From positions 1-33,734 of IMG/VR virus record IMGVR_UViG_2778261657_000006: DNA of 33,734 nucleotides; one strand, 5' to 3'. Position 1 is the first letter of the stretch. Every line of letters begins with the position of its first letter. The DNA is from a virus (lineage: Duplodnaviria; Heunggongvirae; Uroviricota; Caudoviricetes). Of the stretch, positions 1,789 to 20,963 are shown in pieces. A program made the position numbers and the translations under genes. The notes under the pieces are model-generated. The model worked only from the letters and a program-made list of their open reading frames with translations, was not told the origin of the DNA and made no database searches.

Positions 1789-3600
1789 TTAAAGGATCCA
1801 GATTTCAGGATTCTTTAGCGTCTCAATTTGGTTTTTATTACTGGCATAAAATGCATGATACATGTCTATCATTTTTTCGTTGGAGCTGATAAAAACAGAT
1901 GGATCTTTGTTTAAAATTCTGCTATATGTATCAAATATTGCTTTGTATTCTGGTGTTAAATTATTAGATAGAACTGATGTTACTGTCTCAACTTTGTTTG
2001 ATGGATTGAAATTTTTAAAAAACAGTCCTTCGAAATGAGGTATTTGAATAAATACCATTGGTTTTTTACTTTTAGAGCATTCGTTCATTATGGATACATT
2101 TGAACCCCATGCTCCATTACCTGAAACGCTTCCTTGCTTTAAGCATTTTGGAATGTCGGAGTCATGTACTGCTATATACTCAACGTTAAATTGATTTAAT
2201 ATTTTAGCAAATGTTTTTATATTCCCTTTTCCTAAACAGTCAATGATATGATAATCAACTCCGACAATATCACATATTTTGTTAATGACGATTTTTTCAG
2301 TTGGGCCTTCAACTAATATTATATTGTCGTAAAAGAAAAACTCATTAACCATTGGGTTGCATAATCTTATCATTTTCATATTATCTTTTTCCTCTTCAGA
2401 AAAAGATAGTTCATCTGTAGATATTGTTTTATTTAGCGATTTGTCTTTTTCTATCCTAATTATAGTCGTGTGCTTCTTGGATAAGTCTATGAATACAGGG
2501 GAGTGTGTTGTAGCCATCACCTGCCAGTTATCATTGTTTGCTGCAAAATCATAAAGCGAGTCCCTCGCACTTCTAATTATAGGAGGGTGAAGAAATGATT
2601 CAGGCTCATCAATCAATAAAATATATTGTTTTTTCTCAACAGAGATAGGCTTACCTTTCGCTTTTTTTATTTTATCTCGTGCATGAGATTCGTGAGTCAA
2701 AATTTGCAAAGCAGACCATAAAACGGAGCGGCGAACACCGTGACCTTGGTTCTCGAGAAGAGAGCTATTTATCCCATCCATTTTCACTGTAAGGTTAGAT
2801 TCTGAAACCATAACATCCGCATCTACGGGATCCTTGGAAAGTATGTTTAATTCCAGTTCTAGCCCAGGAAAAACAGATGATGATGATTTGGAGACCTGCT
2901 GTAGAAGATCATCGATTTTTGATTTGGAATCTTTCATAAGAGTGTCTGTCAACTCTTGTATTTTCTGTATTATATCAGCTTTACTTTCCCCTGTTTTCAG
3001 TAACTCATCTTTTGCATCTTCCTTTAAGAAACTTATGATAATTTTTTTAGTTTCATCCATGGATTTATCTGGGCTTATTCTTATTGGTTGAGGAACTCGA
3101 CTTTGTAGTAGTGTGTCAAGTCCCCCAGAGCCCCCATCAATAAATATGCGTTTGCCAGAGGCATCATCAAGGCCATAGGATTGTTTTTGGGCTGCTTTTT
3201 CTGGATGTGACCAAACCCATTTAACACAATAATAGAGTTTGCTTTCCAATGGGGTATTATTTTTCTCCCAATCTCCCCCATACTTTCTTGCCATATTTCT
3301 TCTGTCAAGAGCATCATCTTTATAAAACCATTTCTCTCCCCCTAATGTACGAATATCATCATCAGTGATATCAGTGAAAATTCCGCACATTTCAATTGGT
3401 ATAGATATATCTGAGTTATAAAAATCATGAGCAGTCAGGCCTTTTGCTGATCCTAAAGATGCAAACTTTTCATACGCATCTAATATTGTTGACTTTCCAG
3501 AGTTATTTGGACCAATTAGCACAACTATATCATCGATATATACTTCTATTTCATCTTTTATCGACTTGTAATTTTTAATATTAAATTGCTGTAGCTTCAT
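1789..3600 (-). CDS. OLD-family (overcoming lysogenization defect-like) ABC-type ATPase fused to a TOPRIM nuclease domain; candidate anti-phage defence / exclusion protein
   Basis: 603-aa ORF. N-terminal Walker A GPNNSGKST (aa 30-38), Walker B/D-loop LLIDEPESFLHP, H-loop ATTHSP. C-terminal TOPRIM signature ILVEGPTEK (conserved Glu, about aa 431) and HDSD (DxD, about aa 480; codons around 2161-2169). Very AT-rich compared with the flanking phage genes. Candidate TATAAT -10 upstream and a hairpin terminator downstream. Confidence 0.8.
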   Translation of the reverse strand: MKLQQFNIKNYKSIKDEIEVYIDDIVVLIGPNNSGKSTILDAYEKFASLGSAKGLTAHDFYNSDISIPIEMCGIFTDITDDDIRTLGGEKWFYKDDALDRRNMARKYGGDWEKNNTPLESKLYYCVKWVWSHPEKAAQKQSYGLDDASGKRIFIDGGSGGLDTLLQSRVPQPIRISPDKSMDETKKIIISFLKEDAKDELLKTGESKADIIQKIQELTDTLMKDSKSKIDDLLQQVSKSSSSVFPGLELELNILSKDPVDADVMVSESNLTVKMDGINSSLLENQGHGVRRSVLWSALQILTHESHARDKIKKAKGKPISVEKKQYILLIDEPESFLHPPIIRSARDSLYDFAANNDNWQVMATTHSPVFIDLSKKHTTIIRIEKDKSLNKTISTDELSFSEEEKDNMKMIRLCNPMVNEFFFYDNIILVEGPTEKIVINKICDIVGVDYHIIDCLGKGNIKTFAKILNQFNVEYIAVHDSDIPKCLKQGSVSGNGAWGSNVSIMNECSKSKKPMVFIQIPHFEGLFFKNFNPSNKVETVTSVLSNNLTPEYKAIFDTYSRILNKDPSVFISSNEKMIDMYHAFYASNKNQIETLKNPEIWIL

Positions 3601-3685: not shown

Positions 3686-3800
3686 CACTGGGGCGTATCG
3701 TGATACATGTTATGTAAATGTTGCTTATCTCTTTCCTTTTATATGATTTGCTGTTATTTTTAAATGCCGAAGGCTTCCATATGTTTTTATCTCAGTTATC

Positions 3801-3846
3801 ACTATCTTTGATAGTTCGTGTGCATGCGCAGTTTCTTTGAAACTGC
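3801..3846. promoter_or_regulatory. Two adjacent palindromes (actatc-ttt-gatagt at 3801-3815; gcagtttc-ttt-gaaactgc at 3828-3846); candidate operator sites
   Basis: Direct reading of perfect inverted repeats in the AT-rich intergenic region between the divergent OLD-family and hok genes. Confidence 0.3.
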
Positions 3847-4030
3847 AGATATCCGCTCTTTACCCAAACGGACAGACAGATTTGTGTTATGCCAACGCAG
3901 AGCGTCGATGGGGAAATAGTATAATAAATGAAAGTTGTTAGTGTCGGATGGGCGTCGTTAACAGGATTTGAGAAAATGAATTTAATTGTTGTTATTGTTC
4001 TTATGGTTCGCCTTTCTGATTGATTTCATG

Positions 4031-4059
4031 TTGGCGAGGTAACGGTAGTTAAGTAGAAT
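4031..4059 (+). promoter_or_regulatory. Candidate hok promoter (TTGGCG - 17 nt - TAGAAT)
   Basis: Sigma70-like hexamers with 17-nt spacing. The predicted transcript would carry a leader of about 170 nt before the hok ATG, matching the long structured leader typical of hok mRNAs. Confidence 0.3.
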
Positions 4060-5893: not shown

Positions 5894-6271
5894 ATGACTG
5901 AACGCATAGAATTTGTTTTGCCTTACCCGCCGACGGTGAATACCTACTGGCGACGTCGTGGCAGCACATATTTTGTATCAAAAGCCGGTGAGCGTTATCG
6001 CCGTGATGTGGCGCTTATTGTTCGCCAGCAGCGACTGAAATTAAACCTGTCCGGAAGGCTGGCAATAAAAATTATTGCAGAGCCACCGGATAAGCGCCGC
6101 CGCGACCTGGACAATATCCTGAAGGCACCACTGGATGCGCTGACGCATGCCGGACTACTTATAGACGACGAGCAGTTTGATGAAATCAATATTGTGCGCG
6201 GACTGCCTGTTCCTGGTGGGCGGTTGGGCGTGAAGATTTACGAAATTACAGGTGATAACGATGGTGCGTGA
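5894..6271 (+). CDS. rusA: RusA-family Holliday junction resolvase
   Basis: 125 aa with the RusA hallmarks: [54 protein letters not shown]. Confidence 0.85.
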
Positions 6272-6647
6272 TATTCAGCAGGTTATGGAGCGGTGGGGAG
6301 CATGGGCTGCGAACAATCACGAAGATGTGTCATGGGCGTCAATCGCTGCTGGTTTTAAAGGATTAATCCCGCCGAAAGTGAAATCACGCCCTCAGTGTTC
6401 TGATGATGATGCAATGATAATTTGTGGCTGTATGGCCCGGTTGAACAAGAAAAATCAGGATTTGCACGATTTGTTGGTGGATTATTACGTAGGTGGAATG
6501 ACTTTTATGGGGTTGGCACGAAAGCATGGGTGTTCGGATACCTGTATTGGCAAGCGCCTGCAGAAAGCGGAAGGGGTTATTGATGGCATGTTGATGATGC
6601 TTGATATCCGACTGGAGATGGACAGATACGTAGAACGAATCATGTAG
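6261..6647 (+). CDS. Late-gene antiterminator Q (phage 82 / QuuD-type)
   Basis: Product [23 protein letters not shown]...[23 protein letters not shown]... closely resembles the DLP12 QuuD / phage 82 Q family as recalled. Overlaps the rusA stop. Followed by a promoter-terminator pair. Start could also be 6252. Confidence 0.7.
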
Positions 6648-6651
6648 GAGC

Positions 6652-6681
6652 TTGACCAGACACATTGTCCGGGGCTATATT
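6652..6681 (+). promoter_or_regulatory. Candidate late promoter pR' (TTGACC - 17/18 nt - TATATT) just after Q
   Basis: Direct reading. Position matches lambdoid pR'. A hairpin at 6689-6706 (cgccag-caaaat-ctggcg) lies in the predicted leader. Confidence 0.45.
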
Positions 6682-6741
6682 CCTCACGCGCCAGCAAAAT
6701 CTGGCGTCGGGATTGGCGTCCCGGATGAAAAAGGCGACAAC

Positions 6742-6763
6742 AGACGCGCCAGCGTCTTTTTTA
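6742..6763 (+). terminator. Candidate tR' rho-independent terminator (end of a short 6S-like leader transcript)
   Basis: agacgc-gcca-gcgtct stem followed by ttttttatt, about 80 nt downstream of the candidate pR'. Confidence 0.5.
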
Positions 6764-6920
6764 TTGTCGTTTGCACTGTCACATCTCAATGGTGGGCTGT
6801 GTGGGGGCGGAGCGATCCGCGCCGGTTCCTTTTTCCCGGTTACGCCAACCCTGCACAGTTCACCACCATACTGATTGGCGTCAGCAGTGGTGATGATTCA
6901 CATAGAAAAAGGATCATCCT

Positions 6921-7409
6921 ATGGCTATTCAAATCTCAGTTGAAACTCTTTCCCCGATCACCCATAACCAAATCCCTGTCATTACTACCGAGCTTTTGGC
7001 ACAACTTTATGGCACCGAAACTAATAACATCAAAGTGAACTATACACGCAATGCCGAGCGTTTTGTTTGTGGGAAACACTACTTCAAATTGGAAGGGGCT
7101 GAGTTGCGGGAATTTAAGAACAAGGTTACTCAAAGTAACTTAGTTGCACCGCGTACAAAGCACCTCATCCTCTGGACAGAACGCGGAGCAGCCCGTCACA
7201 CCAAAATGCTGGAAACCGATCAGGCGTGGGAAGTGTTCGAAAAACTGGAAGACTGTTATTTCAGCCAAAAACAACCACCAGCAGCACAAAACACCCCAAC
7301 CCAAAATGATGGATGCGCATTACTGATCCACTTCGATAAACACGGTCAGGTCGACTTCACGGAAAAACTACCCGCCGATGCGATGGTATGCACTCTGGAA
7401 CGGTTTTAA
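6921..7409 (+). CDS. ORF6N-domain / antirepressor-like protein (BRO/KilA-N superfamily-like) in the Q-to-lysis interval
   Basis: 162 aa. N-terminal region (ITHNQIPVITTELLAQLYGTETNNIKVNYTRNAERF..GKHYFKLEG.ELREFK) resembles the ORF6N/antirepressor fold as recalled; not searched. AGGA-type ribosome-binding site (aaaaaggatcatcctATG). Confidence 0.5.
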   Translation: MAIQISVETLSPITHNQIPVITTELLAQLYGTETNNIKVNYTRNAERFVCGKHYFKLEGAELREFKNKVTQSNLVAPRTKHLILWTERGAARHTKMLETDQAWEVFEKLEDCYFSQKQPPAAQNTPTQNDGCALLIHFDKHGQVDFTEKLPADAMVCTLERF

Positions 7410-7485
7410 AAATTTTCCCCGAACGCTTTACGATCGTAAAAAGTTGAATATCCTGTTAAGAGTGGTTACTACGCCAAACAGCTTA

Positions 7486-7509
7486 AACCCGCCACTGAGC
7501 GGGTTTTTT
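7486..7509 (+). terminator. Rho-independent terminator
   Basis: acccgc-cactga-gcgggt stem followed by tttttat. Confidence 0.55.
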
Positions 7510-7631
7510 ATGCCTGAAAAACGGTACAGGACGTTAAACGCGCTGGTGGTTGCGAATACTGGTCTTTCGGCTTGTATTTTTGTAAATCGATATATACTTA
7601 TCTTGTGACCAGTAATGTCAGGGCAATTGAT

Positions 7632-8375
7632 ATGAATGAAGCTTGTTCTGTTGTTTTTGTTCATTCCCCGTTTGTTGTGCTCTTTGAAGGAAAAGAGCTC
7701 TCTCTGGAAAGTGGTAGTGCACTTCTTGTCAGGGGGGGAGCTGGATCGTTATTGCCCTTTTCGGAATGTTTTCGGCGAATAAGTCTCAGTGAATCGACAA
7801 TTATCCGTTACCTGTTGTGTGGAGACGAAAAACAGGATGTAGTTTTAGTCCGGCAAATACCACGATATCTTTGCGTGAGTTTTCCCAAGGCAGAATTGAT
7901 GGGCATCCTGATTGATTATCTTTGTGAGGAAAAGATTCATACGGACAATTTAGCGGAAATGCTTTCCTTTTCGTGTCTGGCGTTTTTCTCATCAGAGAAA
8001 ATGTTTTCGTCGTTTCTGACCGCGTGTATTGGCAATATTAGTGACAGGCTTAGTGCATTGTTTCGTACGGACATTGCAGCAAACTGGACTCTGAGAGATG
8101 TGTCTTCGCGGTTATGTATCAGTGAAAGTTTGTTAAAAAAAAGACTGAAAGAAGAAGGCACCTGTTTCAGTGAGTTGTTGCTTACAGAGAGAATGAGAAT
8201 GGCAGCAATGCTGTTGAATCAATCTCGTTGCGCCATCAACAGAATCGCTGCTCAGTGTGGCTATAATTTTACATCTTATTTTATCAGCGTATTCAGGAGT
8301 TATTTTGGTGTTACACCGGCAGGTTACAGGATGGCTGCATTCAATGAGATGAGTTTAAGTGTTACTCAAGAATAA
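7632..8375 (+). CDS. AraC/XylS-family transcriptional regulator (prophage-encoded cargo)
   Basis: C-terminal AraC-type helix-turn-helix pair (WTLRDVSSRLCISESLLKKRLKEE...INRIAAQCGYNFTSYFISVFRSYFGVTPAGYR). AT-rich compared with phage core genes. Track ORF starts at TTG 7572; the first ATG is at 7632. Confidence 0.75.
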   Translation: MNEACSVVFVHSPFVVLFEGKELSLESGSALLVRGGAGSLLPFSECFRRISLSESTIIRYLLCGDEKQDVVLVRQIPRYLCVSFPKAELMGILIDYLCEEKIHTDNLAEMLSFSCLAFFSSEKMFSSFLTACIGNISDRLSALFRTDIAANWTLRDVSSRLCISESLLKKRLKEEGTCFSELLLTERMRMAAMLLNQSRCAINRIAAQCGYNFTSYFISVFRSYFGVTPAGYRMAAFNEMSLSVTQE

Positions 8376-8398
8376 TTGAATTTTGCACTCATTGAAAA

Positions 8399-8426
8399 CA
8401 GGCTCGCTGCGGCGGGCCTTTTTTAT
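8399..8426 (+). terminator. Possible rho-independent terminator after the AraC-family gene
   Basis: GC-rich imperfect hairpin (ggctcgctgcggcgggcc) followed by tttttta. Confidence 0.35.
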
Positions 8427-8554
8427 ATCCGCGCCACGTCCGGCGTACATCACATCAGATAACACCACACAAAAGGTATCTGCGGGTGCCTTTGACGGGG
8501 TGTTGTTTTTTTACGGGCCGACAGTGGCCCTTTTTTATTTACAGGAGAAAAAGT

Positions 8555-8944
8555 ATGTCTGAACCCTTATCCGGTTCCGGCACGGCTGCGGCGCTCGGTG
8601 GGGCGACGGTATTCGGGCTGTTTACCGGAACGGATTTCGGGATTGTGTTTGGTGCATTCGCAGGGGCGCTGTTTGTGGCCACGATACCACAGAAGATTTC
8701 TGTCTGGCGTGTGGCAGCGCATTTTCTGGTGTCGTTCATTGTTGGCGTGCTGGGGGCGGATGTGATGGCGTCTTACCTGGTTGAAAAACTGAATCTCCAC
8801 AGCACATCTCTCGACGCGCTTTGCGCGGTACTGGTATCGGTGGTGTCGGTGAAGATTCTCTCATTCATCCACCAGCAGGATATCGCATCGCTGGTATCCG
8901 GGCTGTTCTCCCGTCTGCGGGGTGGAGGCGGTAATGTTAAGTAA
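8555..8944 (+). CDS. Putative holin (multi-transmembrane small protein)
   Basis: ATG preceded by aggaga. About three hydrophobic transmembrane segments and a charged C-terminus. First gene of the lysis cassette, upstream of the endolysin. Confidence 0.55.
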   Translation: MSEPLSGSGTAAALGGATVFGLFTGTDFGIVFGAFAGALFVATIPQKISVWRVAAHFLVSFIVGVLGADVMASYLVEKLNLHSTSLDALCAVLVSVVSVKILSFIHQQDIASLVSGLFSRLRGGGGNVK

Positions 8945-9212
8945 CCTTCCCGGATTACTGAATGTGGTGTTAAGCACGGTTATCGTGCTGACGCTCTTTT
9001 TTTATCGTCGTGGTGAGTCGAGACATAAACCGCTGATGTCGTGGCTGGCCTGGCTGCTGATGCTGCTTTATGCCTTTGCGCCGCTTTGTTATCTGTGTGG
9101 TCGCTTTCCACCCGGTAACTGGCTGGTCGTCCTGATTAACCTGGTGTTCTGCGTGCTGGTGATACGAGCACGCGGGAACGTATCAAAAATCCTTGTATTA
9201 CGAAGGCGCTGA
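8934..9212 (+). CDS. Putative second holin/antiholin-like membrane protein
   Basis: GGAGG ribosome-binding site 5 nt upstream. Two to three transmembrane helices and a basic C-terminal tail (VLRRR). Overlaps the preceding gene end. Confidence 0.5.
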   Translation: MLSNLPGLLNVVLSTVIVLTLFFYRRGESRHKPLMSWLAWLLMLLYAFAPLCYLCGRFPPGNWLVVLINLVFCVLVIRARGNVSKILVLRRR

Positions 9213-9213
9213 T

Positions 9214-9759
9214 ATGAAGTCGAAAGATGAAATTTTTGACGAAATTCTGGGAAAAGAGGGCGGTTACGTCAATCACCCGGATGATAAAGGTGGTCCGACT
9301 AAATGGGGCATCACTGAAAAAGTTGCCCGTGCACACGGTTATCAGGGCGATATGCGTGACCTGACGCGTGGGCAGGCGCTGGAAATACTCGAGGCGGACT
9401 ACTGGTACGGACCACGATTCGACCAGGTTGAGGACCTGTCTCCTGATATTGCCGCAGAGTTGTGCGATACGGGCGTGAACATGGGGCCAACTGTGGCGTC
9501 CAGAATGCTTCAGCGCTGGCTGAACGTTTTCAACCTGCGCGGGAAACTCTATCCGGATATGGATGCAGATGGACGCATCGGGCCGCGTACTCTTAATGCA
9601 TTACGGGCATATCTGAAAAATCGCAGCAGGGATGGTGAACTGGTACTGGTGAAAGCCCTGAACTGTACGCAGGGCGAGCGTTATCTGGAGCTGGCAGAGA
9701 AACGCGAGGCCAATGAGTCGTTTGTCTATGGCTGGATGAAAGAGCGCGTGGTGGTTTAA
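9214..9759 (+). CDS. Endolysin, glycoside hydrolase family 108-like with a C-terminal peptidoglycan-binding domain
   Basis: N-terminus MKSKDEIFDEILGKEGGYVNHPDDKGGPTKWGIT is the typical GH108 start (EGGY...D.GG.T..GIT). C-terminal PG_binding_3-like region. Family recalled, not searched. Confidence 0.7.
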   Translation: MKSKDEIFDEILGKEGGYVNHPDDKGGPTKWGITEKVARAHGYQGDMRDLTRGQALEILEADYWYGPRFDQVEDLSPDIAAELCDTGVNMGPTVASRMLQRWLNVFNLRGKLYPDMDADGRIGPRTLNALRAYLKNRSRDGELVLVKALNCTQGERYLELAEKREANESFVYGWMKERVVV

Positions 9760-9854
9760 AAACTGACACTGAAGTGCTGAACACCCTCAACTCATGCAGG
9801 CTCTTTTCTGGGGCTACGATGAGCGAAAGTAAGGGGCATAGCATCAGATAGCAA

Positions 9855-9890
9855 AAACCCCGGCTGCGGTAACAGTCCGGGGTTTTCTGT
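9855..9890 (+). terminator. Rho-independent terminator after the endolysin
   Basis: ccccgg...ccgggg stem followed by ttttctgttt. Confidence 0.55.
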
Positions 9891-9919
9891 TTCTGGCCCT
9901 GGGTAAGGCAAAGGAGAAC

Positions 9920-10102
9920 ATGAGGAAGTATAAACTAATTCTGTTGAGGTTGACTATGAAAAACGGCCTTGAATTGAAAGCGCCTGTAACTGATGACATC
10001 AGCAGAGCGGTGGCTTTTGCCATTAAGTGGGGGGCGGTCGGTATCGCTGTGTCTCCGATGCTGTATGGGATGGCAAAATTGATCATTGCTGTGAAATCGT
10101 AA
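9920..10102 (+). CDS. Small hydrophobic protein (60 aa)
   Basis: Strong AAGGAG ribosome-binding site 5 nt upstream of the ATG. C-terminal transmembrane-like segment. No recognisable family. Confidence 0.4.
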   Translation: MRKYKLILLRLTMKNGLELKAPVTDDISRAVAFAIKWGAVGIAVSPMLYGMAKLIIAVKS

Positions 10103-10119
10103 GTGGGGCAGGGGTAAAT

Positions 10120-10254
10120 ATGTCAGATAGCATTATAAAACTGGCGCGAATTCTCTGTGTGGTTGTTGGCCTTTCATTTTCAGCAATGTTGGTTGCCATT
10201 TTCATTTCCACCGCCTGGCGAGTATTGAGCTTATCCGGATTGATTGGTGGATAG
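10120..10254 (+). CDS. Small membrane protein (44 aa)
   Basis: ATG at 10120 within track ORF 10027..10254. Single transmembrane helix (ILCVVVGLSFSAMLVAIFI). Confidence 0.3.
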   Translation: MSDSIIKLARILCVVVGLSFSAMLVAIFISTAWRVLSLSGLIGG

Positions 10255-10258
10255 TGAG

Positions 10259-10441
10259 ATGAAGCGAAAACACTGGACACACAGAATGCCGCGAACGGCG
10301 GCGAAATGGGCACTGGTAGCGATACTGGTGCCTTTTTTCCTGGTGGGATGCGTCAGCCTGGATAAGGCGCGCCAGCTTTTCGATACGGCCTCGCAGGTCT
10401 GCGAAATTGTCGAAAGTGCCAGGCAGTGTATGCAGAACTGA
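10259..10441 (+). CDS. Small lipoprotein (60 aa): possible o-spanin-like or exclusion lipoprotein
   Basis: Signal peptide with lipobox FLVGC (MKRKHWTHRMPRTAAKWALVAILVPFFLVGC...). Confidence 0.45.
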   Translation: MKRKHWTHRMPRTAAKWALVAILVPFFLVGCVSLDKARQLFDTASQVCEIVESARQCMQN

Positions 10442-10528
10442 TCGCCTGTAAGAACAGAATATTGTTGAATCTAAATTTACTTTGAACAGTGGCCCGGATG
10501 GAAAGGGCATCTAAATAGGAGCAGAAAA

Positions 10529-10738
10529 ATGTTAACTGTAAAAGTCATGTCTCAAAATGGTGGGGAAGAGATCCATTGCGGGCGTAGCATTGGCTATCAT
10601 CCAGAGCAGCGGAGTATTGCCGTATCGGGAAAGGATGGGAAAGTCATTCTGAAAGATGGAGATATTGCTTATGTAATGAACCAAAACGCTCAAATAATAT
10701 CTGTTTATCGGCCCAATAATAGTCAGAAAAACATTTGA
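10529..10738 (+). CDS. Hypothetical protein (69 aa)
   Basis: AGGAG ribosome-binding site 8 nt upstream. Lies in an AT-rich cargo region. No recognisable family. Confidence 0.45.
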   Translation: MLTVKVMSQNGGEEIHCGRSIGYHPEQRSIAVSGKDGKVILKDGDIAYVMNQNAQIISVYRPNNSQKNI

Positions 10739-10861
10739 ATTTCGCAAGGCCAAAGTTCAGTGGTGATCGTTATCAACTAATTGAAATAACAAGCTTATGT
10801 TTGTGTAATTGGTGATATAGCATGTTAATGCTGAATATCAGCGTCAACATGGAGTTATACA

Positions 10862-11077
10862 ATGGTTTTTAAACACTATTACGTGAACAAAAATGCTCAG
10901 AGCAATGGCGATCATGAGGTGCATGCTGAGGAATGTTCATATCTTCCTGCTGTAGCTAACCGCGATTACCTTGGTTACTATAGTGATTGTTCTTCGGCGG
11001 TAACAGAGGCAAAGGCCAAAGGATATTCCCGGGTGAATGGTTGCTATTGGTGTGCCAATAAGTGCCACACGTCTTAA
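10862..11077 (+). CDS. Hypothetical small Cys-rich protein (71 aa)
   Basis: GGAG ribosome-binding site upstream. Cys residues at CSYL, DCSS, GCYWCANKCH suggest a metal-binding or disulfide-stabilised fold. Followed by a clean terminator. Confidence 0.5.
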   Translation: MVFKHYYVNKNAQSNGDHEVHAEECSYLPAVANRDYLGYYSDCSSAVTEAKAKGYSRVNGCYWCANKCHTS

Positions 11078-11096
11078 TCAATTGTCAATAAACCAT

Positions 11097-11120
11097 AAAG
11101 GCCGCTCTGCGGCCTTTTTC
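11097..11120 (+). terminator. Rho-independent terminator
   Basis: ggccgc-tct-gcggcc stem followed by tttttc. Confidence 0.6.
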
Positions 11121-11140
11121 ATGTTAAAAAAGATTGCGGC

Positions 11141-11177
11141 ATTACAGCAGCCCTTCACTCTAAGGGGCTGCTGTAAT
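11141..11177. repeat. 13-bp perfect inverted repeat (attacagcagccc / gggctgctgtaat) with an 11-nt loop
   Basis: Direct reading. Followed by two copies of aataaaaaaccgg (about 11185 and 11319). Confidence 0.5.
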
Positions 11178-11499
11178 GTGAGAAATAAAAAACCGGTCAC
11201 AGGGAGCAGCTACACAGAACCGGCCGGCGAAGACCGCCAATACCACCCATGCATTGATGCAACATACTAATTACAATAGCCGCTATTGATGTAAATGCAA
11301 TGTTATGCATCGACGAAAATAAAAAACCGGCAGGGGAAATCCATTGAAGATTTGCCGGTGGCAAAAGAGGGCCATGTTTTTAACCTTAGTCGCAGAGTTA
11401 CGGAGTGCAACTACGAATGCTGCCGGTATATGGCTGAATGGCGTTTCAATGATGTACGTCATCTTATCTGTAAATGTTAATGATAAACGCTCTCATTTG

Positions 11500-11560
11500 T
11501 GCGGGTCCTCCCGGTGTAGTGGCCTTACCACGGGGCGGGAGCGGCGCGGAAAACGGCTAG
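11500..11560. other. Putative cos site (cosN-like)
   Basis: cgggtcctcccggtg...acggggcgggagcggcgcgg resembles the lambda cosN region (cgggtcctttccggtg...acggggcggcgacctcgcgg) as recalled from memory. Lies about 200 bp upstream of the terminase small subunit gene with AT-rich DNA in between. Confidence 0.45.
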
Positions 11561-11717
11561 TTTTTTGCATTTTCATGGTGGCGGCAGCATGTGAGGTAAT
11601 TTATTGATAATTAAAAGCTATTTCCATTTTCACCTGTACAATATTTTTTTCTCCCTGTCATTAGACCAGTTTGCAATTGATTGATATATATAAATAAATC
11701 TGATTTTTACCTGCCGG

Positions 11718-12266
11718 ATGGAGTTGCCTATGTCAAATGTGATTGGGATCGGTGATGCTTATCACTGGAGTGTTTTTAAAATCGCCGAGGCTTTTGGACT
11801 TCATCGGGACACAGTAAAAAAACGTCTCCTCGCAGCCAACACTCCTGTGGCTGCAACTGTCAAAGGAAACCCCGTTTATGCCCTGCAGCATGTCGGCCCT
11901 GCCCTGTTTGGCCCGAAGCATGAGGCAGTAGACTCTGTTCATGATCCATCCCGGATGGAGCCGAAAGAGAGAAAGGACTGGTACCAGTCTGAAAATGAAA
12001 GGATCAAGCTGGAAAAGGAACAGCGAAAACTCATCCCTGTCGATGAAGTGGTCATCGTCTATTCATCCATGAGAAAGGCTGTCGTTCAGGTTCTGGAAAC
12101 CATTCCGGATATTCTGGAACGCGATTGCGCCCTGACTCCTCAGGCTGTTGGTGTCGTACAGCAGGCCATTGATGACCTGCGATACACCCTTCAGGAAAAA
12201 TCCTACGAGGCCTGTGCTGCTGAATTAATTTCTGATGAGGAAGGAGAGAGTCTCGAGGAGGAATAA
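11718..12266 (+). CDS. Terminase small subunit (Nu1-like)
   Basis: N-terminal helix-turn-helix-like region and acidic C-terminus. Immediately upstream of, and overlapping, the large terminase start. The likely true start is ATG 11730, which has a GGAG ribosome-binding site. Confidence 0.65.
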   Translation: MELPMSNVIGIGDAYHWSVFKIAEAFGLHRDTVKKRLLAANTPVAATVKGNPVYALQHVGPALFGPKHEAVDSVHDPSRMEPKERKDWYQSENERIKLEKEQRKLIPVDEVVIVYSSMRKAVVQVLETIPDILERDCALTPQAVGVVQQAIDDLRYTLQEKSYEACAAELISDEEGESLEEE

Positions 12267-19776: not shown

Positions 19777-20517
19777 ATGCCAACACCGAATCCACTGGAA
19801 AAAACGAAGGGCGCGGGGACGACGTTCTGGATGTATACCGGCAAAGGGGACGCCTTTGCGGCTCCGTTGTCAGATACTGACTGGCTGCGTCTTGCGATGG
19901 TGAAGGATTTACAGCCGGGCGAAATGACTGCAGATGCGGAAGATGACGATTATCTTGATGATGAAAATGCTGACTGGAAAACGACAACCCAGGGGCAAAA
20001 ATCCGTCGGTGATACTTCGGCGACGCTGGCCTGGCGTCCGGGTGACAGCGGGCAGAAAAAACTGGTTCAGTTGTTCGACTCTGGTGAAGTCTGTGCGTTT
20101 CGTATCAAATATCCCAACGGCACTGTTGATGTTTTCCGTGGCTGGCTGAGCTCGCTGGGGAAAACTGTTACCTCTAAAGAGGTGATGACCCGCACTGTGA
20201 AAATCAGCGGTGTGGGACGTCCGTATCTGGCAGAGGAAGGCACCGGGCTTGTTAGCGTGACCGGTCTGACGGTGGCACCGGCATCTGCCAGTGTCAGGGT
20301 GGGGGCAACGACGACGCTGACATTCAGCACAGTACCGGAAGATGCTTCTGATAAAACGGTGAGTGTGGCGTCATCATCTCCTGATATCGCCACGGTTACG
20401 CTGAGTGGCATGGTGGCCACGGTGAAAGGTGTGAAAGCGGGCAGCACCTCGATTGTGGGGATGACTGCGGGTGGTGCGCAGGTTGCTGTGGCCGGTATTA
20501 CCGTTAATGGTGATTAA
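19777..20517 (+). CDS. V: Major tail protein V with C-terminal Ig-like (Big_2) domain
   Basis: MPTPNPLEKTKGAGTTFWMYTGKGD...NGTVDVFRGW closely matches lambda gpV. AAGGAG ribosome-binding site 6 nt upstream of ATG 19777. Confidence 0.9.
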   Translation: MPTPNPLEKTKGAGTTFWMYTGKGDAFAAPLSDTDWLRLAMVKDLQPGEMTADAEDDDYLDDENADWKTTTQGQKSVGDTSATLAWRPGDSGQKKLVQLFDSGEVCAFRIKYPNGTVDVFRGWLSSLGKTVTSKEVMTRTVKISGVGRPYLAEEGTGLVSVTGLTVAPASASVRVGATTTLTFSTVPEDASDKTVSVASSSPDIATVTLSGMVATVKGVKAGSTSIVGMTAGGAQVAVAGITVNGD

Positions 20518-20534
20518 CCTGGCAGTCTGTTTTT

Positions 20535-20562
20535 TACCCCGGTATGCCGGGGTTTTTTGTTT
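20535..20562 (+). terminator. Rho-independent terminator between V and G
   Basis: ccccgg-tatg-ccgggg stem followed by ttttttgttt. Confidence 0.55.
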
Positions 20563-20573
20563 ACGGAGGGGAC

Positions 20574-20963
20574 ATGTTTCTGAAACAGGACACATTTAAC
20601 TACGGTAATCAGTCTGTGGTACTGACGGAATTATCCGGACTTCAGCGGGTGGAGTATCTGGCGTTTGTCCAGAAACGGACAGCTGAGTTTGACGCCCTGG
20701 ATGATGCCATGCCGGTGGCTGATCGTCAGATTGAATTTCTGCGTATGGGGATGGATATCAATGCCTGGCTGGTTTCCCGGTCAATGTGGAATACGGACCC
20801 GTCACAGGATGTGGATGCGCTGAATGAGGATGTAAAAAACACCTGGTCTTATGACGCGCTTGGCGACGGGGGCAGTCTGGTTTTATCCCTGAGTGGTATG
20901 CCGGTCTCCACCGGTGATGTTCAGAACGGTGAACAGGTTCCCCTGACACCGGAAAAGTCCTGA
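20574..20963 (+). CDS. G: Tail assembly chaperone G
   Basis: MFLKQDTFNYGNQSVVLTELSGLQRVEYLAF resembles lambda gpG. GGAGGGG ribosome-binding site. Confidence 0.8.
   Translation: MFLKQDTFNYGNQSVVLTELSGLQRVEYLAFVQKRTAEFDALDDAMPVADRQIEFLRMGMDINAWLVSRSMWNTDPSQDVDALNEDVKNTWSYDALGDGGSLVLSLSGMPVSTGDVQNGEQVPLTPEKS

Follow-up and report, generated by a model that had tools for sequence, protein, structure and literature searches.

In phage lambda, the genes Rz and Rz1 lie right after the endolysin gene at the end of the lysis cassette, and Rz1 is a prolipoprotein of about 60 aa with a periplasmic Cys. Canonical spanins of this kind must bridge the periplasm. In the 2018 spanin census, periplasmic Cys residues forming disulfide links were a near-universal feature of two-component spanins, and 91 of the 677 phages of Gram-negative hosts (~13%) had no recognisable spanin (PMC6139136). 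The u-spanins of the T1 gp11 type are encoded by a single gene of the lysis cassette and begin with a lipoprotein signal, to which a periplasm-spanning body and a C-terminal transmembrane domain (TMD) are added (PMC6139136). A further solution is gp28 of phage phiKT, a 'disruptin', which by its published description is a cationic antimicrobial peptide and a small single-gene product that replaces spanins in the outer-membrane step (bioRxiv 10.1101/515445). Here we describe ORF C, the last of three small open reading frames (ORFs A, B and C) that follow the endolysin gene in the DNA of a lambdoid Escherichia coli prophage; the whole stretch analysed (33.7 kb) is called the window below. Apart from the phiKT cationic peptide, we know of no established account of how spanin-less phages breach the outer membrane. 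The C gene itself was catalogued in 2018; new are the findings that it stands alone, that it is constant as the fourth gene of a mobile, widely distributed cassette, and that it alternates with Rz/Rz1 in one slot. Region 8555-10441 is the lysis cassette of the prophage, lies within a late operon antiterminated by Q, and contains the following features:

8555-8944, plus strand: holin-family gene 1, Phage_holin_8, 129 aa (PF16931, E 3.7e-22, 79.2 bits, cut-off 26.4; phrog_198 'holin', 1.5e-41)
8934-9212, plus strand: holin-family gene 2, Phage_holin_3_7, 92 aa (PF05449, E 8.4e-21, 74.2 bits, cut-off 25.4; phrog_217 'holin', 3.7e-35)
9214-9759, plus strand: endolysin, 181 aa, GH108 and PG_binding_3 (PF05838, 1.2e-26; PF09374, 9e-27; phrog_315 'endolysin', 9.5e-54)
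9858-9892, plus strand: hairpin resembling an intrinsic terminator, stem 9858-9882 with one bulged U, U-tract 9883-9892
9920-10102, plus strand: ORF A, 60 aa, hydrophobic C-terminal half (phrog_1115, 6e-40)
10120-10254, plus strand: ORF B, 44 aa, one clear transmembrane (TM) helix (KD19 maximum 2.8; phrog_4906, 1.6e-19)
10259-10441, plus strand: ORF C, 60-aa prolipoprotein with lipobox LVGC31 (phrog_7528, 4.7e-36)
10308-10339, plus strand: RNA hairpin inside C, codons 17-27, 11 bp, GNRA loop (GCGA or GCAA), U6, -16 to -20 kcal/mol

With Rz1, C shares the approximate size, the prolipoprotein character and periplasmic Cys residues. Like Rz/Rz1, it occupies the slot right after the endolysin at the end of the cassette, and the two are interchangeable in otherwise identical cassettes; in sister cassettes, Rz or an inner-membrane (i-) spanin follows the endolysin through an identical junction. 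As in outer-membrane (o-) spanins, the lipobox is not followed by Asp at +2: LVGC31 is invariant, with V or A at +2 and S or T at +3, and lipidation is predicted. Unlike Rz/Rz1, however, C has no inner-membrane partner gene and is neither embedded in nor overlapped by another gene. Its mature peptide is predicted to be helical rather than proline-rich, is too short for the periplasm at 29-30 aa and shows no sequence similarity to Rz1; Pfam, NCBIfam and PHROG searches at E<=1 returned neither a characterised o-spanin nor any Pfam, NCBIfam or spanin-annotated PHROG match. T1 gp11 measures about 130 aa, and C is about half the size of u-spanins or less. Since C has no C-terminal TMD, its C-terminus (...ARQCMQN) being polar and its sole hydrophobic segment being the signal peptide, we do not regard it as a u-spanin despite its lipobox. 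Nor does it qualify as a cationic peptide: its helix is amphipathic, but its net charge lies between 0 and -1. Moreover, phiKT gp28 is not known to be a lipoprotein, whereas C has a lipobox. Colicin lysis or bacteriocin release lipoproteins, which permeabilise the envelope, are similar in size (precursors of about 45-52 aa, mature forms of about 28-33 aa), and their signal peptides reportedly persist after cleavage and matter for function, which would parallel the conserved signal peptide of C. Unlike C, they are not known to have a Cys pair, act slowly via phospholipase A activation, and are plasmid-borne and SOS-regulated. There is no sequence similarity either (no match of C to Pfam Lysis_col at E<=1), the likeness being one of size and class only.

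Alternation of ORF C and Rz/Rz1

Two samples of loci were compared. The C-locus set (n = 88) comprised 80 IMG/VR contigs, 3 GTDB genomes, E. coli EC11, the reference phages phiP27, phiSTEC1575 and GER2, and the window; C is intact in 87 of these, GER2 being the 88th, and gene content was mapped by tblastn with reference proteins. A second sample of 80 IMG/VR loci was chosen by the holin3_7 gene only, because circularity was to be avoided. Six divergent members of the C family, from Yersinia, Cronobacter and metagenomes, were examined singly outside the 88-locus set.

C lies 3' of the endolysin in 87/87 intact-C loci. The commonest layout is endolysin, about 14 nt, then C, and more than 30 loci have no intervening gene. 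The six divergent members carry the same four genes, and in three of them (L090, L093 and L094) the two genes share 4 nt where the endolysin stops and C starts (ATGA in L090). In two others (L092 and L095) C begins 16 nt after the endolysin stop, while the Cronobacter locus (L096) has an A-B-C layout.

Among the holin3_7-selected loci, the terminal gene was C in 67 of 80 and, in the same place, a lambda-type Rz with embedded Rz1 in four. Five loci had neither gene (one of them disrupted by an insertion element), the contig ended too early in another four, and C and Rz occurred together in none (0/80). In locus L151, for instance, Rz begins 16 nt after an M15 endolysin. Furthermore, in Yersinia phage vB_YpM_39 both of these holins and a GH108 endolysin precede an i-spanin gene and an o-spanin gene that overlap each other (phrog_1026, phrog_1275), and the endolysin is again joined to them by ATGA. 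The only copy of C beside a full S-R-Rz/Rz1 set, that of the Stx-type phage GER2, is a pseudogene with 64% identity and three in-frame stops. In line with the initial annotation, which had found no Rz/Rz1 pair evident, the 33.7-kb window contains no Rz homologue and no second lipobox ORF adjoining the lysis genes. A lipobox scan of the 88 C loci likewise gave no other Rz1-like lipoprotein ORF near the cassette, with Rz1 and Bor recovered as positive controls. This complementary distribution is our main argument: C fills the position held by Rz/Rz1 or another two-component spanin in otherwise identical cassettes, is therefore a candidate for the third lysis step, and would perform it at the outer membrane. 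The decayed copy in GER2 lies at 2989-3171 of its locus (L005), between the Rz/bor region and terminase.

The endolysin of C loci is either a GH108 enzyme or an M15 peptidase. In a Lelliottia locus (L009), where C is 56% identical, the holin8/holin3_7 pair is absent and a lambda-S-type holin (PF05106) is present, with GH108 and C still adjacent. Judged by gene content, C is constant across both endolysin types and two holin sets, i.e., independent of the other lysis genes. Its G+C content (GC) of 0.55 matches that of the lysis genes. Of 5,426 complete E. coli genomes, 312 carry the C gene, in as many as 7 copies each; it also occurs in Salmonella, Citrobacter, Cronobacter, Yersinia and Lelliottia. 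The cassette is a mobile four-gene module of the phiP27 type, composed of Phage_holin_8, Phage_holin_3_7, a cytoplasmic endolysin and C. It had been described initially as a non-lambda cassette with two holin-like proteins and a GH108-type endolysin, and the profile matches bear this out. Both holin genes score above the gathering thresholds of their families (PF16931, PF05449) and are placed 5' of the endolysin; they share an 11-nt overlap, and the second encodes a putative 3-TM protein. The endolysin matches PF05838 with 93.4 bits (cut-off 21.2) and PF09374 with 93.5 bits (cut-off 24.6), and no TM or signal-arrest-release (SAR) segment was evident at its N-terminus when the sequence was read by eye. 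A search of the literature on Phage_holin_8/3_7 and on spanin-less systems yielded nothing specific to this cassette.

ORF C and the question of a partner gene

The initial annotation had proposed three small translated ORFs, and their coordinates were confirmed. Because each of them matches a PHROG family of its own and has a low ratio of nonsynonymous to synonymous polymorphism (pN/pS 0.24-0.37), A, B and C are, on sequence grounds, genuine protein-coding genes. The ratio was 0.37 for A (14 distinct sequences), 0.24 for B (9 distinct sequences) and 0.24 for C (49 distinct sequences), and none of the three families gave anything significant in Pfam, NCBIfam, PADLOC or PDB sequences. A profile search of 1.84 billion proteins delimited the C family to 23 representatives at 50% identity, of which 20 have 44-111 aa and three of 220-635 aa match over short stretches only. 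At 90% identity the family forms 145 clusters, and every named source organism is enterobacterial.

The predicted signal peptide of C (Met1-Gly30, 30 aa) consists of a 16-residue basic n-region (MKRKHWTHRMPRTAAK), an h-region and the lipobox LVGC31. The mature peptide, C-VSLDKARQLFDTASQV-C-EIVESARQ-C-MQN, contains a predicted amphipathic helical segment (hydrophobic moment muH about 0.5). The lipobox, Cys48 and Cys57 are invariant in alignments of 23 and 28 sequences and are also kept in the intact divergent representatives; the spacing between the two Cys is 8 or 9 residues in intact representatives. Purifying selection acts on the mature-peptide codons outside the internal hairpin (pN/pS 0.215). 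The likely start is Met1, which 48 of the 49 distinct sequences retain; over codons 1-9 the pN/pS is 0.22 and synonymous variation is normal. It is this codon that overlaps the endolysin stop in three of the divergent members. Comparison of C with the Lelliottia-type homologue P0224 gave 81% identity for the signal peptide versus 41% for the mature part. The signal peptide (10259-10351, with the motif RKHWTHRxPR) is about twice as conserved as the mature part, the reverse of the usual pattern.

The hairpin at 10308-10339 is kept in 55/55 distinct C gene sequences, including the 56%-identical Lelliottia homologue. Substitutions within it are nearly all pair-compatible, the exceptions being one pair lost in two close relatives and the outermost pair lost in L009. 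Synonymous diversity is the lowest of the gene at this site (0.046 over codons 16-26 vs 0.19 elsewhere). A scan of 7300-11800 revealed no sigma-70-like promoter on the plus strand. With no promoter found and an internal hairpin that would halt non-antiterminated transcripts, expression of C looks likely to be confined to the late phase. We infer that the hairpin would stop ordinary transcripts before the mature-peptide codons, which fits a late-only, potentially toxic product. Rfam gave nothing at this hairpin or at the one 5' of A (9858-9882), with weak sub-threshold matches only.

The one published partner concerns phiP27. Kongari et al. (2018) list this phage as having a 'separated' two-component spanin that forms a singleton family, with the i-spanin at 20348-20542 and the o-spanin at 20706-20861, predicted on positional and lipobox grounds; with 62 periplasmic residues in total, the pair is the shortest of the 677 phages (PMC6139136). 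The o-spanin is the orthologue of C, 90% identical and annotated from Met10. Its supposed partner is a 64-aa ORF with a TTG start and no PHROG family that runs antisense to a 90-aa ORF having a family of its own (phrog_36812; 3787-3981 vs 3771-4043 on the minus strand of locus L002). This 64-aa ORF was found in 3 of the 88 loci, all phiP27-like, and is absent from the window and nearly all relatives. We rejected it as the partner of C, since it is unconserved and antisense to a family-bearing ORF, and the i-spanin annotation is probably spurious. Holin3_7 and holin8 were rejected as well, since C occurs with a lambda-S-type holin in L009. A cognate i-spanin gene was found neither in the ORF list of the minimal locus L010 nor in the gene calls of L090-L095 and L009; inspection of the L010 list by eye, aimed at a hidden i-spanin, revealed no nested or overlapping ORF that starts with a hydrophobic stretch, as an i-spanin would. 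Neither A, B nor the phiP27 64-aa ORF is consistently found with C, which, as far as gene content goes, has no conserved partner gene. Pfam, NCBIfam and PHROG searches gave no clear homology of the small ORFs to characterised spanins, but the earlier listing of the phiP27 orthologue of C as a predicted o-spanin (PMC6139136) is an independent precedent for a role in the outer-membrane step.

Proposed action of ORF C and competing explanations

We consider it moderately probable that C is an outer-membrane-sorted lipoprotein that breaches the outer membrane without a phage-encoded inner-membrane partner. Following the lipobox and the established rules of lipoprotein biogenesis, C would leave the cytoplasm through Sec and receive its lipid at Cys31, and signal peptidase II would then remove the signal peptide. 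Because residues +2/+3 are V/A and S/T, not Asp, Lol would then carry it to the inner leaflet of the outer membrane. Once the holin has fired and the endolysin has cleared the murein, the amphipathic, disulfide-capable peptide of 29 residues would destabilise the outer membrane, acting without the partner of canonical spanins, which must bridge the periplasm. A, B and the hairpin before A would be separate inserts between the endolysin and the gene for the outer-membrane step. A wider proposal, which we advance tentatively and which may well prove too broad, is that C represents a third kind of outer-membrane disruptor in phages, in which a lipoprotein of about 30 residues acts alone in place of the entire spanin complex and needs no periplasm-spanning bridge. 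As an extension of that proposal, the cleaved signal peptide, being unusually long and better conserved than the mature part, may persist in the inner membrane as a second product, and the internal hairpin would confine synthesis to Q-antiterminated late transcription.

Several points weigh against an outer-membrane breach by C alone. A mature peptide of 29-30 residues cannot span the periplasm, and lone lipoproteins have no established mechanism of this kind. C is neutral or slightly acidic (0 to -1), unlike the cationic, membrane-active phiKT gp28, and its AlphaFold2 model, a single long helix, is of low confidence (pLDDT, predicted local distance difference test, 67). Spanin-defective phages still lyse in many laboratory conditions, so that the viability of phiP27 says little, and the slot may be dispensable, given that C and Rz are both missing from five of the 80 holin-selected cassettes. 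The counts come from closely related prophages of Enterobacteriaceae and are therefore not independent events. Finally, the analysis covered the window and flanks of +/-4-6 kb, and a partner or spanin could lie elsewhere in the prophage or in the host.

Such a partner is the essence of one competing explanation, in which C is the o-spanin of a true two-component spanin together with B, A, the phiP27 64-aa ORF, a holin-family protein or a host protein. The listing of phiP27 as a separated pair (Kongari et al. 2018, PMC6139136) is in keeping with it, as are the two invariant periplasmic Cys of C and the position of B, an N-in single-TM protein, immediately 5' of C in the window. We nevertheless regard it as unlikely, since the phiP27 i-spanin ORF has the shortcomings described above (TTG start, no family, antisense position, 3/88 loci), most C loci have no A or B, and B is widespread beside complete Rz/Rz1. 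Furthermore, L009 has C without holin8/holin3_7, B and C together provide only about 42 periplasmic residues, and no i-spanin-like ORF was seen by eye in the L010 list. It is similarly improbable that C serves lysogenic conversion or superinfection exclusion, as a lipoprotein comparable in function to Cor, Llp or Bor that merely rides at the end of the cassette. Receptor blocking and serum resistance are frequent roles of small phage lipoproteins, morons cluster in the gap around C (opposite-strand bor in 8 loci, ant, A, B), and the C family is narrow and host-restricted, with its 23 representatives at 50% identity. However, C lies on the late-operon strand, its translation is coupled to that of the endolysin, it lacks a promoter and a terminator of its own, and its GC is that of the lysis genes; it is mutually exclusive with Rz/Rz1 in the slot and a pseudogene where Rz/Rz1 is present. 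Expression in the lysogen is made less likely by the terminator-like hairpin within the 5' end of the gene, and PADLOC gave no match for C. The suggestion in the initial annotation of a superinfection-exclusion or cargo function found no positive evidence and, for C, is disfavoured by the translational coupling to the endolysin.

Selection on 10259-10441 mainly as an RNA hairpin or terminator, with a peptide of little function, would account for the hairpin and U-run in every distinct sequence and for the minimum of synonymous diversity there. It would leave unexplained the constraint on mature-peptide codons outside the hairpin, the invariant lipobox and Cys pair, and an n-region that is conserved as protein while its synonymous variation is normal, and we consider it very improbable. 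Joint action of A, B and C as a three-part spanin equivalent or cargo module, as first suggested, appears to us scarcely credible. In the window, EC11, the Cronobacter locus L096 and about 25 IMG/VR loci, the three follow one another at short distances on one strand, but the sub-combinations C alone, A+C, A+B+C, B+Rz, A+B+Rz and ant+B+Rz all exist. A and B also differ from C in GC (0.45 and 0.44 vs 0.51-0.56 for the lysis genes and C), and in Rz-bearing phages homology to the window is lost almost exactly where B gives way to C (~10262, 4 nt into C). The conserved last gene is C on its own; the commonest layout lacks A and B. What remains plausible of the spanin-equivalent idea concerns lipoprotein C, by virtue of its slot; A and B, being optional and found beside Rz/Rz1, drop out of it.

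If a lipoprotein of about 30 residues does replace Rz/Rz1 on its own, it would represent an outer-membrane disruptor of minimal size that is simple to test, and the published two-component spanin annotation of phiP27 would be corrected. If C is not lytic, these widespread prophages would be natural spanin-less phages. The cassette is a release apparatus that stands beside toxin cargo, namely stx2e in phiP27, stx2k in phiSTEC1575 and a pertussis-like toxin in Cronobacter. A type 10 secretion reading, with a holin and endolysin beside toxin cargo, was set aside because the cassette lies in the late region of a prophage, together with Q, terminase and a series of long downstream ORFs consistent with structural genes.

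ORFs A and B and the surroundings of the cassette

The strong terminator initially placed at 9855-9890 corresponds to a G+C-rich hairpin with its core stem at 9858-9882, followed by UUUUCUGUUU. The stem folds at -27.3 kcal/mol (z = -4.2, 0/200 shuffles equally good). A rule-based terminator scan did not detect it, probably because the bulge splits the stem and the loop of the outer helix exceeds the 8-nt limit; folding was therefore used. The hairpin is kept 5' of A in four different contexts, namely the window, phage PhiR12_3, the Cronobacter locus L096 and phiSTEC1575-Stx2k, and we thus take it to be the left edge of the A insert. As it lies inside the Q-dependent late operon, it need not split expression during lytic growth. 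The hairpin is real, but it belongs to the A insert and need not set the three ORFs apart from the lysis genes.

A is preceded by AAGGAG, 3 nt 5' of its ATG, and is missing from most C-bearing loci; in PhiR12-type phages it sits between R and Rz. By tblastn, B was present in 276 phage records, mostly Stx-converting phages, and A in 14. B stands directly 5' of Rz in the three records inspected: in PhiR12_3, A and B together lie between R and Rz, and in VT2phi_272 and L137, B follows an antirepressor gene. Given that hundreds of Stx phages have B between R and Rz, we do not consider A and B to be spanin substitutes. The gap between endolysin and C can hold A, A and B, a P22-type antirepressor, an opposite-strand bor, a 93-aa ORF, the phiP27 pair of L31 and the antisense 90-aa ORF, or nothing. 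From these arrangements, A and B are optional, mobile passengers of lower GC in an insertion-prone gap, separate from C. The nearest analogy for them would be a small accessory membrane lysis factor such as LambdaSo Lcc6, which likewise has a single TM segment and about 45-65 aa and is encoded with or near lysis genes; unlike A and B, which are optional in relatives, Lcc6 is needed for lysis and acts at the holin level in the cytoplasmic membrane (bioRxiv 10.1101/2024.01.23.576932). The gap 5' of C or Rz is an insertion hot spot (e.g., L007 5444-6004, L043 5485-5826 on the minus strand, L140 5415-7381) whose contents include a P22_AR_N antirepressor, opposite-strand bor in 8 loci, the 93-aa ORF (phrog_33497) and an insertion element.

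The 2.2-kb region shares 98.7% identity with E. coli EC11; phages SerU-LTIIb and phiP27 reached 83-87% in parts. SerU-LTIIb is a degenerate prophage fragment with toxin genes 3' of the endolysin. The enterobacterial holin-holin-endolysin-C region also occurs with 84-88% identity in Actinobacillus phage vB_Apl-pPE4 (PP818812.1, 18166-20286), whose recorded host is Actinobacillus pleuropneumoniae; it may be worth verifying where this sequence came from or whether the host is correctly assigned. On the 5' side of the cassette, the window carries an OLD-family nuclease gene on the minus strand, genes for a DUF968 protein and RusA, Q, an Ash/ORF6N region and an AraC-family gene, and the following features lead up to the first holin:

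6252-6647: antiterminator Q (PF06530)
8400-8419: terminator-like hairpin that closes the AraC cargo gene
8515-8540, plus strand: terminator-like hairpin with T-run, just 5' of the first holin, in the late operon downstream of Q

The nuclease gene (1789-3600, minus strand) encodes a 603-aa OLD-family ATPase/TOPRIM protein and represents a prophage-borne defence gene (PADLOC Old, 3.4e-73). Just 3' of Q, overlapping the Ash/ORF6N ORFs, three Rfam families match above the gathering score: c4-a1b1 (6675-6727), the Hfq-binding small RNA isrK (6688-6762) and the C4 antisense RNA (6785-6870). Region 6675-6870 looks like an immI-like or Gifsy-1 IsrK-type antirepressor control module. The AraC-family regulator gene (7632-8375, GC 0.42, phrog_1450) occupies the cargo slot between Q and holin. 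It is flanked by terminators, with two terminator-like hairpins between it and the holin, and the same gene was found 5' of the cassette in about 12 IMG/VR loci. In relatives the cargo slot holds stx2e (phiP27) or a pertussis-like toxin subunit (1489-2217 of the Cronobacter locus L096). On the 3' side, two conserved ORFs lie between C and terS, one of 69 aa (10529-10738, phrog_3909) and a Cys-rich one of 71 aa (10862-11077, phrog_4298), which alternate with a phiP27 L33-type ORF among relatives. They are followed by a strong bidirectional terminator-like hairpin at 11097-11117, and the terminase genes begin at 11718.

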